IMG/VR virus record: IMGVR_UViG_3300007171_000042
Coordinates: 1-64,000 of that record
Source of the DNA: an uncultured virus (IMG/VR IMGVR_UViG_3300007171_000042)
Lineage: Duplodnaviria > Heunggongvirae > Uroviricota > Caudoviricetes
Length of the DNA: 64,000 bases
Reading direction: 5' to 3' (one strand)
This document shows positions 6,555 through 60,063 of this stretch, in pieces; position 1 is the first letter of the stretch, and the number at the start of each line of letters is the position of its first letter. Below the pieces are notes generated by a model. That model had not been told where the DNA came from and made no database searches. It saw only the letters and a program-made list of their open reading frames with translations. The translations under genes were made by a program, and so were the position numbers.

Positions 6555-9500
6555 TTAACTTCTATCTAATCCTTCTTCATAGTCAGACAACTCTCTCTGT
6601 TGTTCTTTAAGCTGGACTTTTTCTTTTTGAAGATCATCTATTTGTGATTGTAAAGATTGTTTAGTTTCTTCATCATCTAAATAGTCTAACTGACGAGTCA
6701 TAGCTTTAATTTGTTTATTAATAGAAGATATGTCTCCTTTCGTTCCCTTTATCTCAGAATCTAATGTAGATATAAACCATCTTGGGTTTTTAGCTTCATA
6801 TTTCCTATAGATATACTCAGGTCCAGTAAAGTAATTTGTACTTACTGCAAGTCCAAACATTTTTTCTAATCTAGCAAAAAACTCCATCTGTCCCTGAAGT
6901 ACAGGATCAGGCTTATATCTTTTAGGATTTAAAATATTACCTGTTCTACTACGTTCAATATACTCATCAAACATATCTACATCATCTAATGGGTTAACAA
7001 ATTGATAAGCTAATTTAATAGACTCAAAAGCTCCCTGCAAAGGAAGAATAAAATTTTTCTCTAAATAAAATTGTCCTATATTCTTACCGTCTACATTATT
7101 CATCATACGAGAATAGACAATAGATCCTGTTCCAAAGACAGGATTCAACGTGTTTAATTCATCTTCGATTTGTAAAAGATTGTAAAGTAAAAAATAAGCT
7201 CCCCAGATATTTTCCTCATCGTCATCATCAGAGTATACTAAAGCATTTAAAGCAATTGCAATAGCAGTACTTACACTTAACACAAGCATGTCATAAACTG
7301 CTGCCATAGCTTCTGCTTTTTCTCTAGGACTCATTAAACTGTCTACAGCTGCAAAAGAAAATCTATTCTGCATGATTAACTTAAGAGCCTGTACCAAGGT
7401 TCTAAAGTACCCTTGTTGTTCCATACCTGCTCCATAGTTCATTCTTCTATTTCCAAATCTTCTAATAAACTGATAGGTAAACCATCCCTTCATGTAGCCA
7501 ACTAATCTTCCTATAGTATATCTACTATATTCTCCTTTATCCATTGCACCATACGCTCCATGAATAAGAGCATTTACTGCGTTTACTTTTTGCCTAAATG
7601 CAGATTCTACTCCACTAAATCCTTCTATGTCTTTAATATTTGGATCAGGTTTAATAACACCCTCTTCTACAATGTAAGCATCCATTATAGGCTTGAATGT
7701 TCCATCGGTCATCTCTACCATAAACTGCTTAGATAAAGATTCTGCTACCGCACTACGCATTTCAAATTCACCAAATGTCCTAGTAAAAGAAAGCATATAA
7801 AGAGGATTGTATTTTCTAACTCCTTTAGCTAAATCACTAACATATACTCTTTTACCTGATTCAGTTAAATGATCTTCAACCATAATATTGAAGTAACGCA
7901 TCTTCTGAATATAAGGAGAATCTATACCATCTTCTACATAAGATTTAAATAAATCGCCAATATGCTTAGCATTCTTTCCCATTGCTACAGTAACATCTTT
8001 TCGACTAACACCGTAAATCTTTAACTGTTCAAAGATGTTTATTGTACCAGCTCCAAAGTTTTTAATACTTGAAGGTAAACGTAAACTAAGTGCTAACTCT
8101 GCACCAATACCCAATCCCTTATCTAAAGCCCACTCAAATACCCTACCCGCTTTATTATTAATCATAGGCTTTCTAGACTTACCTTGTAACTTACGTTCAA
8201 ATAAGTTATTTACCATCTTTTGGATACGACTTCCAGGAATTTTTTCACTAAGAACATCTTGTATACCGTATAAATATGGAGCATTAGCGTAAGCTTTTCT
8301 AAACCTAATCAGATCAGTACCGTACATAGTTAAACTATTAATAAAGTTTACACTCATCTTGTCTGCCCCAATAGGAGTATTGTAACGTAAGAAAAGTCTT
8401 CTATTAACCTTTGTCACCATACTGCCTTCTTCGTCTCTAGACATATCTTCATCATTCTTAAAGGTCATATTATCCCATATGTTACTAGCTACGCCTTTTA
8501 TCTGAGAGCCAATAGTACCAAATTTCTTATTTCCTAAAGCCTCAAAGCCTTCTTTCATTACAGAAGGAAGTTCTAAACCTTTCTTAAGGTTTCTAGGAAC
8601 TCCTTTTTGCATCTCATTATACACCTCAAGTATTTCAGAAAGTAACTGTTTTTCTTCAGTACTTAATCTAGCGTACTCTGGATTTATATACTTAGTCTTT
8701 GTATTATCCAATGATACTCGTTTAGATTTCTTGTTCTGAGTAACGGTTTCTTTTCTAAAAACAGGATTAAGAGTAATAGTTTTCCATCTAAACGAGGGTT
8801 CATTAAAACTAATGTAGGACTTATCTGTAGGTTCAGTCGTCATCCAATAGGTTAGTGGTTCATCTTCTTCTATAAAGGTACCTGCAGCTTCAGAATAGTT
8901 ATAAACCTTTTTATGGTTCATCTTATACCATGTAGTATTTTTTAATGCCTCTACAGCATCCGAAGTTAGCAAACTACCATTTTGATCTCCTGCATACTTA
9001 GCAGAATTTTGAGCAGAAAGTTTGGCTCTTTGTTCAGCTAACTTAGTATTGTATACTTCAATATATGCAGGTGTATAGACTTTTTCTTGGATTGCAGAAA
9101 GCTCTTTATATAGATTACGAAGAGCTACACGATCTTCTCTGGATAGTTCAGGAGACTCCTCTTTAATAGTTTCTTTAACTTCTTCTAACTCTTTCTCTAA
9201 CTCTGCTATACGTATAGGAATATTTACTTCTCTAACAACACCATTCTCCTCTACAGTAACAGTCTCATTAGGAATTCTTGATCCATCATAAAGATTATCA
9301 TTATTCTTAAATCCTTTTAATAGGCTAAAAATCTCATCCCAGATCTCTGAAACAGTTCTCATGCCAGGAACATCTACTTTCTCTTGAATAGCAGAAATAG
9401 AATCTAAGATCTCTCTACGTTCTTCATAAAACTCTGGACTAATCTTTCTTACAGCATTATTGGCTCTCCAAACATCATAGTCTTTTTGGACTGCATTTAG

Positions 9501-12373: not shown

Positions 12374-12403
12374 CAAATATAATCTTTAATTAAAAATATC
12401 AAA
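12374..12403 (-). promoter_or_regulatory. Bacteroidota-type promoter
   Basis: TTTG (12400-12403), 18-nt spacer, TATATTTG (12374-12381) just upstream of the 1934-aa gene. Confidence 0.7.
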
Positions 12404-51427: not shown

Positions 51428-52163
51428 ACAGTAATACATCTCTTAAGTAGGCAAATATTAGTCCGTGAGTTTGTTTTGCTTTCCTTTTACATACCCTTGT
51501 AATGTGGGTAGCATCTTTTATTTTACAATCTTTAGCAGCTGCTGAAGCAGATTTGTAAACTTTTATAACACTCCTATTAAAATCTAGTAGACATACAGGA
51601 ATAATGACTGCATTCACACGAGATTTAAGAAGGTTTGGATTATTTTTATTTAATTCCTTCATTTTCTCGGAATGTTTACGTCCGATTTCTACACGCTTTT
51701 CCTTTGATATATGTCCATATCCAAAACTTATAGTCTTGGTAGAATGCAAAGATTTCATAAGTAAAGAGTGTTCTTTACATTTCTTAGCCCATAACTCTGA
51801 GGTTTTAAGAGTCAAGTTTCTTTTGTCTATAGACTCCTTACTAAGTTTGTGGCCCCTATTGCCTTGACCTCCTAGGGCATGATTGCATAGATTACATGTT
51901 TTTCTATACTCTCGTATATAATGAATTTCTCTTTCATCTAGGTTTTCTAATGCGCACTGTTCCAATACATTTAAGATAGGTTTAAAATTATGAAGTTTAA
52001 GATTTCTTATCCAAGAATTTACATAAGTTAATTTTCCAACTGTTCTAGCTTCTTGGTGTAAGTGCTGAGCAAGTCTTTTTGACGGGGAGTTAATAGTCTG
52101 ACCCACATACCTAATTTGGTTAGTACGTGGATCAGACAATGTATAAATGTAACCTAGTTTCAC
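51426..52163 (-). mobile_element. Free-standing GIY-YIG homing endonuclease with NUMOD1-like C-terminal HTH
   Basis: GYIYTL...RYVGQT, RLAQH, REIHYI, CNHALGG; C-terminal YKSASAAAK...ITRVCK...HGLIF; GTG start overlaps portal TGA. Confidence 0.85.
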
Positions 52164-54625: not shown

Positions 54626-56635
54626 TTAGTATCTAAAGGGAGAAGAGGTTGTACGGAATAAAGAGTTGCCTTTTCTTTCTCTAAAGTATGCATTAATTCT
54701 GTTGTCATCATTTGTATTAGAGATAATGACTTGAGTATTTAAAGACTTAGCCATAGCTAAAGTAAGGCCAAAAGAGATTACTCGGTCAACGTTTAACTTA
54801 GGAGTGAACTTAATTAATTCCTTAATCAAGACAGGGTCTAGAATCCTTGTTACACCTAAGCGTTCTTTTGTAATATTTCCTTCAGCGTCTCTCTCGACAT
54901 CTACTACTTCGGTAATGTACTCGATAATCAAAGACATTAGATAGCTCTTAATGTCCTTAGTCATGTGAATACCATAGTCACGGTTAACTGTAGAGTTAGG
55001 GTGAATATCATTCAAAAACTTAGGAGTTCTTTCAAGTACTCTAGGAGACTCATTCTTATCTACACAGTGTTGGATAAAACCGTAGTCCATGTTCTCGCAA
55101 AGAGTCTTAGCATTGTAGTACTTAAGAAGCATCTTAGTATTCTCATACCAAGTCTCAATTTTCTTAGGACGACCTGTGTAACAGGCTACTACCATATTCT
55201 GCCATCCCTCTCCGTTAAGGTTATGTACTCGTTTGTAGATATAAGTTGAACCCAAAGAAGTTGAGTAGTGTGCTTGAGATTGTTTATATGGGTCCGTTCC
55301 TGCTGTATAAAGCCCATAGGGAGCATCTGAGACAGGATATTCCCAAATCTGAATACAACCCTCAATATCGTCTGTTGGTTTAACTGGGAAGTTCGTAACA
55401 GCTTTTTTATCTGTAAACTTATGTCTTACAGATCCATCAGAAGTTATGTAGAGTTCTACGTTATCAGCAACAATCTCTTGAGCTGTTAACTTTTGTAGTT
55501 GTTCTTGAAGCAAGTCTACTGGGAAGATGTTTTGAGAAAGCTCTAAGAAACACTCCTCATGCGTGAGAGGATAGTACATTACTTCCTTAAGGTAAGTCTC
55601 AAGACCACTAGATTTTTTAATCTGTTCCCTAGACTTTAAGATAAGCTCTTTACCTTTTTCCTCATCTGCTACCCAGATCTTAATTAAGTCTAACTCTGAA
55701 GCCTCTTCTTTGCCTAAGTGCAGTCCTAAAGACTTTTCTTCTTTAGGAACTTTCAAAGACTTAGTTCCTGGAATAAATAGTCCATAACTTTTACCTGTTT
55801 CATTTGCTTCAACAGGAAGAAAATTATAAGCCTCGGGATTATTGAAAAGTTCTTCTAGGTCAGCAGCTTTACTCATATCTCCCGAAGTTCCGATCACAAA
55901 AGGAGAACAACGCCAACCATAAGGACTGTCAAAACACGGAGTAGTTGCCGCTAAACAACTAAGGATCTTTCCTTTTCCTCCTTCTTCCAAAAGAAAAGAA
56001 GAAAGAGTAAGACCTGCAGCTGCTTCCGTATTGTTGCCTTCGTCAAAGTTTCGTACGTGGAACTTAGACCACTCATTTCTAGCGTTAGTCTTTTTGTCTT
56101 TAAAACCTAAAGTAACCTGCTTCTTCCAGTCATCTTCGATACGAGGAAATCTAAAGTAGTCAGGTAAGTTTCTAAGACCTAAGTCTACGTAGTCTGTAAT
56201 TACTTTTAAGTCAGGTTGGTTAAGAGCTGAAATAAGATTATCCGATCCCTTCTGTGTGATAGCTTTGTGGGCCATATAAGAGGAAGTCAAAACTGACTTA
56301 GAGATACGACGAGATCCTACCATTACAACTCCTTTCTTTCCGTCCTCGTGATTCTCAGCTTTATGAATAGTTTCATCTACAGCCAAGTAAGTGTCCCACA
56401 GTTGAGGTTTGTCTAGCTTACGAACTTGACGCTTACCTATCATTGTATCTATGTAGATAGACCAGTAGTTTAAGTGCCAGTAAATAAAAGGAGAAAAATA
56501 AAATCCGTTAATAGTCACACCCTCAGTAATCTTCCTATCCTCGTTCTCCCAAAATGCAGTATACTCCTCTGAGTCTGTGTCAGGGAGATTCTTTACATTG
56601 ATTAGGAATTCAGGACTATTTAGATTAGGATACAT
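54626..56635 (-). CDS. terL: Terminase large subunit
   Basis: ATPase motifs VMVGSRRISKS and FLLEEGGK; nuclease motifs AGTDPY, LCEN, DRVISF; upstream of portal. Confidence 0.9.
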   Translation of the reverse strand: MYPNLNSPEFLINVKNLPDTDSEEYTAFWENEDRKITEGVTINGFYFSPFIYWHLNYWSIYIDTMIGKRQVRKLDKPQLWDTYLAVDETIHKAENHEDGKKGVVMVGSRRISKSVLTSSYMAHKAITQKGSDNLISALNQPDLKVITDYVDLGLRNLPDYFRFPRIEDDWKKQVTLGFKDKKTNARNEWSKFHVRNFDEGNNTEAAAGLTLSSFLLEEGGKGKILSCLAATTPCFDSPYGWRCSPFVIGTSGDMSKAADLEELFNNPEAYNFLPVEANETGKSYGLFIPGTKSLKVPKEEKSLGLHLGKEEASELDLIKIWVADEEKGKELILKSREQIKKSSGLETYLKEVMYYPLTHEECFLELSQNIFPVDLLQEQLQKLTAQEIVADNVELYITSDGSVRHKFTDKKAVTNFPVKPTDDIEGCIQIWEYPVSDAPYGLYTAGTDPYKQSQAHYSTSLGSTYIYKRVHNLNGEGWQNMVVACYTGRPKKIETWYENTKMLLKYYNAKTLCENMDYGFIQHCVDKNESPRVLERTPKFLNDIHPNSTVNRDYGIHMTKDIKSYLMSLIIEYITEVVDVERDAEGNITKERLGVTRILDPVLIKELIKFTPKLNVDRVISFGLTLAMAKSLNTQVIISNTNDDNRINAYFRERKGNSLFRTTSSPFRY

Positions 56636-58082: not shown

Positions 58083-58426
58083 GCAGTTGCAACTTGTTTG
58101 TTTTCTTCAGAAACTAGAGTAGAAAGAACTAAAGTGAGAGTAACACCTTGCTTGCTAGTAGGACACAATCGTCTATTGACTGTATTCTTTTCTAAGATAC
58201 CCATCTTTCTTAGTTTAGTAATTCCGTTAGAAATTACTTGTATGGATGTGTTAAACTCACTAGAGATCTTTTCTTTTACTTCTTTGTCTAAAGTACCGTA
58301 GTATGAACTGTGGGCTAGGATACTGGTGTATAGATCTGATAATCTGTAACCTGCAAGTCTGAGTAGTACATCAATGTAGGCCTGATGCAACTTTACTCCT
58401 TCTTCATATTTACGTGCTACTTTCAT
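58079..58426 (-). CDS. Winged-helix DNA-binding protein (RepL-like)
   Basis: KEKISSEFNTSIQVISNGITKLRKMGILEK helix-turn-helix. Confidence 0.55.
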   Translation of the reverse strand: MKVARKYEEGVKLHQAYIDVLLRLAGYRLSDLYTSILAHSSYYGTLDKEVKEKISSEFNTSIQVISNGITKLRKMGILEKNTVNRRLCPTSKQGVTLTLVLSTLVSEENKQVATA

Positions 58427-58460
58427 TGTTTTTGGTTGGTTTGGTTTATTTTTCCTTAAA

Positions 58461-58490
58461 CAAATATACTATACTAACAAAAAAAGTCAA
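58461..58490 (-). promoter_or_regulatory. Bacteroidota-type promoter for the terminase operon
   Basis: TTG (58488-58490, within TTGAC), 19-nt spacer, TATATTTG (58461-58468). Confidence 0.7.
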
Positions 58491-58621
58491 GTTAAATGTT
58501 AAGTCTAGACAGTAGTGTAACATCTGATATTATACGTATTAGCTAGAATCTTAATCTAAATAATTATTTTAATTGAGGATAAGTATTACACCCCGACTAT
58601 GGACAAAAAATTATTTAAAAC

Positions 58622-58629
58622 TATATTTG
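58622..58629 (+). promoter_or_regulatory. Divergent Bacteroidota-type -7 element
   Basis: TATATTTG 18 nt upstream of the ATG at 58648. Confidence 0.6.
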
Positions 58630-58647
58630 TGTTAGAACAATACTACT

Positions 58648-58920
58648 ATGTCGATGGAAAAAATTAAAAAACCAACTTCCCAAGAAGTATTTGACATCTT
58701 CTTGTTGGCTTTGCAAGACGAAGACATAAAGCTTGCAGGAGACATAGGAGGATTTAAAGATGCCCTTTATCAGGGATTCAAGGATTTTACCTATAGAAAA
58801 AAGTATACGGAAGAGATGTTGTGGGAGTATATCGAATATGCTTTAGACTCTCTAATGGATACCGACAGTCCTATGCAACAAACTGATTATCTTACAGGTC
58901 AATCAGCTGCAGGACTATAA
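58648..58920 (+). CDS. Acidic hypothetical protein
   Basis: 90-aa ORF with its own promoter element, no overlap with minus-strand genes. Confidence 0.65.
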   Translation: MSMEKIKKPTSQEVFDIFLLALQDEDIKLAGDIGGFKDALYQGFKDFTYRKKYTEEMLWEYIEYALDSLMDTDSPMQQTDYLTGQSAAGL

Positions 58921-58933
58921 AATATTAACATTC

Positions 58934-59313
58934 AATCCACAGAGCAGACTGCTTACTCACAAACAACAGTATATTCGCATTTGACACCACTGCATAAGTG
59001 TTCGTAGGTGAGGATGAGATGGTAACCTGCTAGAAGTCGGATTGTGAGAGTAGCCCTTGAGGCGAAATTGGTTTTCTCCGATAGTGTCAAAATGTTCTAG
59101 TGAAATGTAAAGTACTCTGACCTACAACTAATAGACCGTAGGCAATAAGTGGACAGAACAGAGACTTAGCTTAATTTAAGCTATTTGGGCGTAAAAACGG
59201 CTTTACTATAATCTAAAACAGTAAGTAACATTGACAATCTTAGCCTGGAAGAATAGCCACCCTGAGAATAAATCAACGTACAAGAAATCTAAGACTGCAG
59301 TTTTGGAAGGATT
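58934..59313 (+). ncRNA. Candidate large structured non-coding RNA of unknown class
   Basis: No ORF of 60 aa or more; many nested helices, a 5'/3' closing stem, and G-U pairs consistent with the plus strand (details in findings). Confidence 0.55.
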
Positions 59314-59330
59314 ATTTTTATTTTTTAGTC

Positions 59331-59357
59331 TTGCCTTAATTAAAATTATTATATTTG
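59331..59357 (+). promoter_or_regulatory. Bacteroidota-type promoter (near-leaderless transcript)
   Basis: TTG (59331-59333), 16-nt spacer, TATATTTG (59350-59357); ATG only 4 nt further. Confidence 0.55.
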
Positions 59358-59361
59358 TACT

Positions 59362-59622
59362 ATGAATACAATTCTAGGCATCATTCTCTTTTTAATCTTA
59401 GTGGTTTTACTGTATCTTGCTCGTAAGGAAGAAAAACGTAGTGACCAGTACTATAGAGATCTTTATGGCTCCAAAGAGGAAGTAAAGGATAATAGTGTCC
59501 AAATCACAGCAGAAGAAATCATAAAGATAGCTGAGGAGATTCACAAACAAGAACCTGCTCCTAAGAAAAAGAAAAGCAGACCTCGTAAGAAGCCTGCTTC
59601 AAAGGAAAGCAAAAAAGATTAA
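59362..59622 (+). CDS. Small membrane-anchored protein with Lys-rich tail
   Basis: N-terminal TM helix ILGIILFLILVVLLYLA; C-terminal PKKKKSRPRKKP. Confidence 0.7.
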   Translation: MNTILGIILFLILVVLLYLARKEEKRSDQYYRDLYGSKEEVKDNSVQITAEEIIKIAEEIHKQEPAPKKKKSRPRKKPASKESKKD

Positions 59623-60063
59623 TTACTTTTTGTAGAGTCTGTAGTATTCAAAGTCGGATTCTCCTCCGTTCTTTTTATACTCCATCCACTCATCATAAAG
59701 GGCACCTTTAAATACAAAGTTGTCCCCTTCATTGATATTTACATAACTAACTGTAGTATCGAGTCCTACCTCTACCATTCTAGTAGTAAAGATCTCAACC
59801 TTCTCAGAAACGATTTTAAGCTCTTCTGAGGCAACAACTAGCTCTTCCTGTAGTTCTTTCTTCTCTTCTACCTTTTGTTCCACTAGAGCCTCTCCTTTTG
59901 CCTTAGCAACAGATGTTACAGCAGAAGCAACTCTAAGATTGTTTTCAATCTTCTTAAGCATGATTTCTAACTCATCTACTGGAGCAGGATCAATAGCTCT
60001 CAAAGGCATAGAGAAATGGATAGCCAAAAAGAATACAGCAAAAATTCCCAATAAGTACTTCAT
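59623..60063 (-). CDS. Exported or membrane-anchored coiled-coil lysis-cassette protein (spanin-like?)
   Basis: Signal-like N-terminus MKYLLGIFAVFFLAIHF, coiled coil; last gene after the endolysin; no lipobox Cys. Confidence 0.5.
   Translation of the reverse strand: MKYLLGIFAVFFLAIHFSMPLRAIDPAPVDELEIMLKKIENNLRVASAVTSVAKAKGEALVEQKVEEKKELQEELVVASEELKIVSEKVEIFTTRMVEVGLDTTVSYVNINEGDNFVFKGALYDEWMEYKKNGGESDFEYYRLYKK

Follow-up and report, generated by a model that had tools for sequence, protein, structure and literature searches.

Here we ask what is encoded by the longest ORF-free gap in a window of 64,000 nucleotides from an uncultured virus; the window is the whole stretch of DNA analyzed, 64 kb of a source record of 72,383 bases that is an estimated 61% complete. 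Almost all genes in the window lie on the minus strand, and the gap sits in a small plus-strand island between an ORF for a 90-amino acid acidic protein (58648–58920) and an ORF for an 86-amino acid membrane-type protein (59362–59622). In the ORF set used here it spans 444 nt (58918–59361). A preliminary description of the sequence had singled out this gap as the longest in the window and as less AT-rich than the others, and both observations hold, with a G+C content of 0.415 at 58900–59199 vs 0.265 in the adjoining promoter gap at 58400–58599. It had also proposed a new structured RNA of about 380 nt. We find that the gap almost certainly encodes a plus-strand, single-copy, highly structured RNA that belongs to a real structured RNA family, although its conserved core is approximately 237 nt (58983–59219) and its limits and part of its fold differ from those first drawn. 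On balance, we favor as the best explanation overall a free-standing, trans-acting RNA gene of a new family with a conserved protein partner.

The RNA lies approximately 2.3 kb from the gene for the terminase large subunit (54629–56635), which heads the structural operon within a minus-strand block that also contains the portal, major head protein, and tail fibers. By terminase, the nearest cultured phage is Leptolyngbya phage Lbo-JY46, whose enzyme shares 40% identity with that of the window; identity to Cellulophaga and crAss-like phage terminases is approximately 29–30%. A homing endonuclease of 245 amino acids (phrog_314, 3.9e-12) is encoded at 51429–52163 on the minus strand, where it separates the portal gene from the next structural gene. 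Three window proteins of 1934–2604 amino acids have no family; their ORFs (1934, 2604, and 2131 amino acids) are consecutive at 6558–26689 on the minus strand, with no PHROG family at 1e-5.

Distribution and linkage to an acidic protein

Relatives of the locus were collected through both the protein and the RNA. A search with the 90-amino acid ORF fetched 12 viral loci, and in all 11 non-identical ones the DNA corresponding to 58982–59237 of the window is 80–84% identical, equal to the ORF itself. A 17-mer scan gave 26 loci, 23 of them real and three chance matches, and a profile of the ORF gave 29. From metagenome contigs, a 20-mer scan gave 26 loci, including one chance match (L087) and one with the RNA in part only (L078). 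The same strongly divergent version of the RNA is carried by L074 and L082. A profile search of 1.84 billion protein representatives returned 16 relatives of the ORF (10 at E ≤ 1e-10), at 28–39% identity to the window protein, and an alignment of three of these relatives led to three more viral loci, L152–L154. The RNA directly follows the ORF in each of these three, scoring 177.6, 172.3, and 171.7 bits.

The ORF always precedes the RNA. In 29 of 29 close loci the RNA begins 62–80 nt after the ORF stop, and it also follows the ORF in L074, where the ORF is 33% identical; over the close, distant, and L074 loci the two are always on the same strand, roughly 40–85 nt apart. The link to the acidic ORF that had been suggested earlier is therefore tight. 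Co-transcription, the other half of that suggestion, is argued against by a conserved promoter box just before the core, which points to a start of its own for the RNA. The protein has no Pfam or PHROG family. Its AF2 model (pLDDT 76.5) has helices at residues 11–24, 33–47, and 55–71 and a disordered C-terminal tail; comparison of this fold with the PDB by Foldseek gave nothing at E ≤ 0.001 (best E 1.7), and the ESM Atlas gave no usable match.

Each of five relatives that are 93–100% complete (110–119 kb) contains exactly one copy of the RNA, as does the window's record, and the family occurs in abundant uncultured freshwater phages of 110–119 kb. A 20-mer scan of prokaryotes, at one genome per species, found no copy and two chance matches (8.6 and 8.2 bits). 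Among 50,697 records of cultured phages, neither blastn of 58400–59700 nor tblastn of the ORF gave a match. Viral contigs scanned with a degenerate pattern yielded 25 loci, each of them a chance match, and a scan with the P0062/P0060 alignment found none. Phage Lbo-JY46 has no match to R1, the covariance model of the RNA. Immediately upstream of the Lbo-JY46 terminase block lies an array of approximately 20 tRNA genes with a homing endonuclease (L234, 118680–123220 of the record), which is about where the window phage has the ORF–RNA island.

Conservation and fold of the RNA core

The fold was determined from the pattern of substitutions among relatives. RNAalifold on 14 sequences already revealed a long-range helix in which four pair types occur, and 54 pairs were then drawn as a structure on an alignment (A6) of 28 rows out of 35 distinct sequences. 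This alignment leaves out the chance match L087, the partial L078, and five loci (L007, L012, L013, L062, and L090) whose cores looked equal to kept A5 rows, short of a letter-by-letter comparison. In A6, 97.8% of 1433 cells pair, vs 28.2–40.7% when the partners are slid by 1–3 columns, both sides change in 19 of 54 pairs, and none of 500 shuffles reached the score. The covariance model R1 has 236 positions and scores the window core at 252.7 bits (E 3e-62). It was used to align 30 sequences from three subfamilies (A12, without L082, which is identical to L074); like A7, this is an alignment made with the covariance model and is biased toward the model's own structure. With a short extra helix included, 96.4% of its 1704 cells are standard pairs, vs 30.8–44.3% when slid. 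Both sides change in 30 of 57 pairs, with at least one such pair in 10 of the 11 helices, and again 0 of 500 shuffles reached the score, so covariation among homologs is above chance. The lineages are few, one dense group and two divergent subfamilies, and many of the compensatory cells are thus inherited rather than independent. G·U accounts for 174 cells and A·C for 6, which identifies the plus strand as the folded strand, in agreement with the wobble pairs first noticed there.

Folding energy gave no such signal. Relative to shuffled sequences, z was 0.22 and −0.01 for the two strands of a 410-nt segment and 0.78 for the core, so the energy is not below that of shuffles, and the minimum free energy fold does not reproduce the helices supported by covariation. 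Given the pairing conserved in relatives, this null result does not refute a structured RNA. Pair-keeping compensatory changes fall on one strand, and coding constraint is absent: the core contains indels of 1, 2, 4, and 12 nt, and no open frame is conserved among the relatives compared. Only one frame recurs, an ORF on the minus strand that begins MTLSEK, and its window and L023 versions read differently after these six residues.

The core folds into two domains. Domain 1 (58983–59088) is a four-way junction of helices H1–H4. H1 (58983–87/59084–88) changes on one side only, from C-G to U·G in 13 of 30 sequences, and both sides change in all four pairs of H2 (58988–91/58997–59000) and all five of H3 (59004–08/59026–30). 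The base of H4 (59036–41/59077–82) shows both-side changes in one of six pairs and carries a long distal arm (59042–59076). Within this arm, a short middle helix (59045–47/59068–70) has a middle pair that is unpaired in 19 of 30 sequences, while A12 pairs 70–96 (UA/UG/AU) and 72–94 (UA in 20 and AU in 10) covary. Above it, AGUA (59049–52) lies opposite GAA (59064–66), both invariant in 30 of 30 sequences, an arrangement that we take to resemble a loop E or S-turn motif. The top of H4 pairs GCC (59053–55) with GGC (59061–63) around a loop at 59056–60.

Domain 2 (59094–59219) consists of H9, H8, H5, H6, and H7, with the long-range helix pair closing a three-way junction. H9 (59094–101/59212–19) is the weakest helix, with 87.9% of its cells paired and both-side changes in two of eight pairs. 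Both-side changes occur in four of seven pairs of H8 (59107–13/59200–06), three of five of H5 (59115–19/59159–63), two of five of H6 (59121–25/59138–42), and all six of the variable hairpin H7 (59167–72/59178–83). A near-invariant single strand, AGGCAAUAAGUGGACAGAA (59140–59158), runs between H6 and the 3′ strand of H5; across the 30 sequences and three subfamilies it is invariant save for one position (G to C in L152–L154). The strand joining H7 and H8 (59184–59199, UUUGG..UAAAAAC) keeps UUUGG and A.A.AC in 30 of 30 sequences. Overall, 102 of 263 alignment columns are invariant in the 30 sequences, and the invariant elements include AGAAGU in the H3–H4 link, GAGUA and GAAA beside the H4 top, AUAGUGUC, AGGCAAUAAGUGGACA, and UUUGG.

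Much of the fold first read from the single sequence survives in this comparison. Six of the ten helices then listed stand, one was half right, and three fall outside the core. CACU/AGUG, GUAGGU/ACCUGC, UCGGA/UCCGA, CCUAC/GUAGG, and the hairpin at 59167–83 are kept in relatives, as are the inner five base pairs (GACAC/GUGUC) of UUUGACAC/GUGUCAAA, the remainder of which is not. In the proposed AAGU-A-CUCUG helix, CUCUG/CAGAG is supported by compensatory CUCUA/UAGAG and CCAUG/CAUGG, whereas AAGU belongs to the long-range helix GUAAAGU (59107–13)/GCUUUAC (59200–06). The pairings AAUCC/GGAUU, AGACUGC/GCAGUUU, and UCUUAG/CUAAGA are the ones outside the core and are not kept. H8, H9 (59094–59113 with 59200–59219), and the short helix at 59045–47/59068–70 had been missed. 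Neither pseudoknot held up: CUCACAA, the proposed partner of UUGUGAG, is not conserved and precedes the promoter box, and UUCUAG, the proposed partner of CUAGAA, belongs to H9. A pairwise column scan for pseudoknots gave no stacked candidate, and its signal was dominated by shared ancestry. A further candidate, AAGU/ACUU, is invariant, so that covariation can give no readout of this pairing; its last U pairs within H7 in L071.

Known RNA families and an endonuclease insertion

The RNA is a family absent from Rfam 15. None of its 4227 models matched the window at the gathering score, none matched within 58934–59313 at E ≤ 10, and the core alone, with the laxest filters, also gave none at E ≤ 10. 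The homologs L074, L152, and L093 gave three unrelated weak rows only, none of them a ribozyme or intron family. The window is also free of tRNA and tmRNA genes by ARAGORN, and bacterial RNase P type A (RF00010) was not found in the whole record at E ≤ 10, in a search whose control was positive in 11 of 14 genomes. The earlier statement that the stretch could not be assigned to tRNA, tmRNA, RNase P, or an intron thus extends to Rfam as a whole. Literature searches on crAss-like non-coding RNA, novel structured phage RNAs, and strings of the core sequence returned no description of the RNA. A catalog of candidate phage RNAs of 29–151 nt from IMG/VR (PMC10690425) may, going by the part of it available, hold fragments of it, and a preprint (10.64898/2026.09.22.753630) deals, in its available part, with other RNAs.

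Several known RNAs share individual traits with it. The ROOL and GOLLD RNAs are approximately 580–800 nt, occur in phages and prophages, and often lie beside tRNAs. Like the window RNA, they are phage-borne and multi-helix, have many conserved unpaired nucleotides and an orphan function, and were found by comparison; unlike them, the window RNA is approximately 240 nt, is not beside tRNAs, and matches neither Rfam model at E ≤ 10. The phi29 pRNA is a phage-encoded, independently transcribed structured RNA. The likeness, by this general description, is of a phage structured RNA gene, here close to the terminase and portal block, but no resemblance in sequence or structure was found, and the large terminase and portal of the window phage are of the standard kind. 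RNase P RNA and 6S RNA, which work with conserved host machines, are of a similar size class, and the short word ACAGAAC presumably recalls a conserved region of RNase P; the helix topology is different, however, and neither RF00010 nor the 6S and 6S-Flavo models match. The freshwater-1 RNA (RF02979) is likewise an orphan motif of freshwater metagenomes and is found in a complete relative of the window phage, but it is 62 nt, at another locus, and of unrelated structure. In that relative (G001, 118,886 bases) it lies at L235:3995–4056 (84.4 bits) beside tRNA-Leu(taa); G001 also carries tRNA-Glu(ttc), and the window has neither the freshwater-1 motif nor a tRNA.

One copy of the RNA gene is interrupted. 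In L078 (380–1020, minus strand of the locus), the H4 top is replaced by approximately 440 nt that encode, on the RNA's strand, a 126-amino acid endonuclease VII (PF02945, 1.1e-24), and the ends of the insert, GGGA and UCCC, can pair. From its sequence, the insert looks like a homing-endonuclease gene that invaded the RNA gene. It removes the invariant AGUA/GAA arm top, is found in one contig, and is absent from all other copies; either the arm is dispensable or that copy is dead. Of 145 relatives of the endonuclease found in viral contigs, 79 loci were kept, and none adjoins the RNA. The strands of the H4 middle helix, just below AGUA/GAA, exist in alternative versions (UGA with UUG, UAU with AGA, and, in L074, AGU with AUU), all of which keep the outer two pairs. 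L014 and L016 show 30 differences over 3017 nt (99.0% identity), of which 7 cluster in 31 nt (positions 1592–1622), exactly at this short helix (window 59042–59076), which suggests a short gene-conversion tract near the endonuclease insertion point. The two H4 observations would fit together if a homing enzyme targeted this invariant RNA gene and alleles were exchanged around its site, although the insertion is known from a single contig.

The insertion bears on whether the RNA could be a ribozyme, either self-processing or akin to group I-like catalytic RNAs but free-standing. Such a size, a multi-junction fold, and numerous unpaired nucleotides that never vary are what one expects of a catalytic RNA. 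In addition, L078 resembles group I introns in that a peripheral hairpin carries an endonuclease ORF with pairing-competent ends; in group I introns, a homing-endonuclease gene in a peripheral loop is common rather than defining. In L078, however, the insertion deletes an invariant motif and has been seen only once, against 79 loci in which the enzyme's relatives occur without the RNA. The RNA also differs from group I introns in having its own promoter box and no flanking exons. The group I intron model (RF00028) has no row at E ≤ 10 for 58934–59313, the core, L074, L152, or L093. A group I intron at the locus was accordingly rejected: the ORF stop is kept in all lineages and followed by a variable spacer and the promoter box, and the genes downstream differ or converge. 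A ribozyme of either kind is, in our view, unlikely.

Putative transcription unit, candidate partner, and meaning

A putative transcription unit can be outlined around the core. The window contains a likely promoter with a −7 box, TATATTCG, at 58970–58977, 5 nt before the core and one mismatch from the consensus TAnnTT(T/C)G. Such a box lies 4–7 nt upstream of GACA, the first conserved bases, in 7 of 7 lineages; the divergent L074 and L152 are among them and have a TTTG 19–21 nt further upstream. We take TAnnTT(T/C)G with TTTG to be the Bacteroidota −7/−33 promoter consensus. TATATTTG boxes are also present in intergenic gaps at 12374, 20260, 30774, 41755, 58461, 58622, 59350, 61787, and 62142, in the orientation of the next gene, and are probably phage promoters for the host polymerase; TANNTTTG is not enriched in the window (82 found vs 75.9 expected).

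On the other side of the core is a variable 3′ tail (59220–59326) with a local hairpin (UCUUAG 59238–43/CUGAGA 59262–67), a purine motif (GGAAGGA, 59305–11), and a U-rich run (59312–26) that, judging from its sequence, is the likely transcript end. A hairpin and a UGRGAAGG-like purine motif occur 3′ of the core in all five tail types compared. Tails of all three subfamilies (L008, L021, L074, and L152) contain one to three copies of the motif, as UGRGAAG(G/A)A; those of the window are at 59246–59253, 59263–59270, and 59304–59311, and in the main group the terminator hairpin has the motif as its 3′ arm. Assembled contigs of four sequencing runs, in which uncovered parts are uninformative, were compared with the locus; in one of them, a freshwater metatranscriptome, the sole contig on 58400–59700 is 151 nt and covers 59017–59157. 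This is a weak hint of RNA expression, as it could be contaminating DNA.

We propose that the RNA would be transcribed from its own host-type promoter, 4–7 nt upstream of the core, and would end at the hairpin or U-run 20–110 nt after it. A start and an end of its own, both inferred from position and conservation, would make it a free-standing RNA gene rather than a leader. Alternatively, the RNA could be a cis-acting 3′ element of the 90-amino acid ORF's mRNA, co-transcribed with it as a stabilizer, terminator complex, or translational regulator. The constant strand and short distance from the ORF stop are consistent with this, and there is no clear terminator between the ORF and the RNA. Against it, the promoter box keeps a fixed distance of 4–7 nt to the first conserved base, whereas what separates the ORF stop from the box or core varies freely among lineages; the 237 nt, eleven helices, and roughly one hundred invariant positions far exceed the needs of known 3′ stabilizers; and conservation is much higher in the RNA than in the ORF that it would serve. 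We regard a 3′ element as improbable.

A riboswitch-like or leader element for the downstream gene fares worse. A plus-strand membrane-type ORF does follow the RNA in the window and in the L021/L026/L028/L029 types. In most lineages, however, a converging minus-strand gene comes next: it encodes 148 amino acids in the L014/L015/L016/L023/L038 types and 147 in L152. The downstream neighbor is thus not conserved, and membership of the riboswitches or leaders was rejected on these grounds. The 86-amino acid ORF of the window is a variable neighbor outside the RNA unit and has its own TATATTTG box at 59350. Synteny brings this reading close to refutation, and we consider it very improbable. Inside the 3′ end of the 86-amino acid ORF, at 59573–59600, a 12-bp terminator-like hairpin with a T-run on the minus strand probably terminates the converging lysis and tail fiber genes; it also accounts for a weak match to L20_leader (E 0.0022). 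Either a DNA-level signal close to the terminase (an origin, a packaging site, or an array of protein-binding sites) or a coding sequence in decay, for which there is the short distance to the terminase gene and a coding-like G+C, is just as remote, since strand-specific G·U and compensatory changes indicate a folded single strand and frame-breaking indels leave no conserved open frame; leader, DNA signal, and dead gene are all close to excluded.

An independent, trans-acting RNA is the probable reading of the sequence evidence. Such an RNA would act in trans as a compact fold, its invariant junction and loop nucleotides being read by a conserved protein partner to form a ribonucleoprotein or a decoy. 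The RNA is nearly frozen while the neighboring protein is only approximately 30% identical, which is why we think that a conserved partner reads the invariant unpaired nucleotides. Because the RNA sequence is held far tighter than the phage proteins, that partner is probably a host machine or a co-inherited protein, and the candidates are accordingly a conserved host machine or the co-inherited 90-amino acid acidic protein. Acidic proteins seldom bind RNA. The H4 AGUA/GAA arm would be the likeliest putative protein-binding site. Protein binding or decoy activity as the mechanism is a tentative suggestion drawn from conservation, to which we give slightly less than even credence.

RNAs longer than 200 nt with a complex fold and many invariant unpaired nucleotides are rare, and the solved examples are ribozymes, riboswitches, or ribonucleoprotein cores. 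A folding-energy z near zero would have wrongly dismissed this one, a real structured RNA. The family now provides a 237-nt construct of defined limits whose fold is backed by covariation, together with a protein that is a candidate partner and lends itself to direct testing. It is a more speculative idea, and one that we doubt, that the RNA, either as a new large ribozyme or as a mimic of a conserved host RNA or protein-binding site, does the work in a new kind of phage device. As a mimic, the RNA and the acidic protein would together take over or disarm host transcription, translation, or RNA-based defense. A device of this type would explain why the RNA sequence is frozen amid diverging proteins and why a homing endonuclease chose it as a target.
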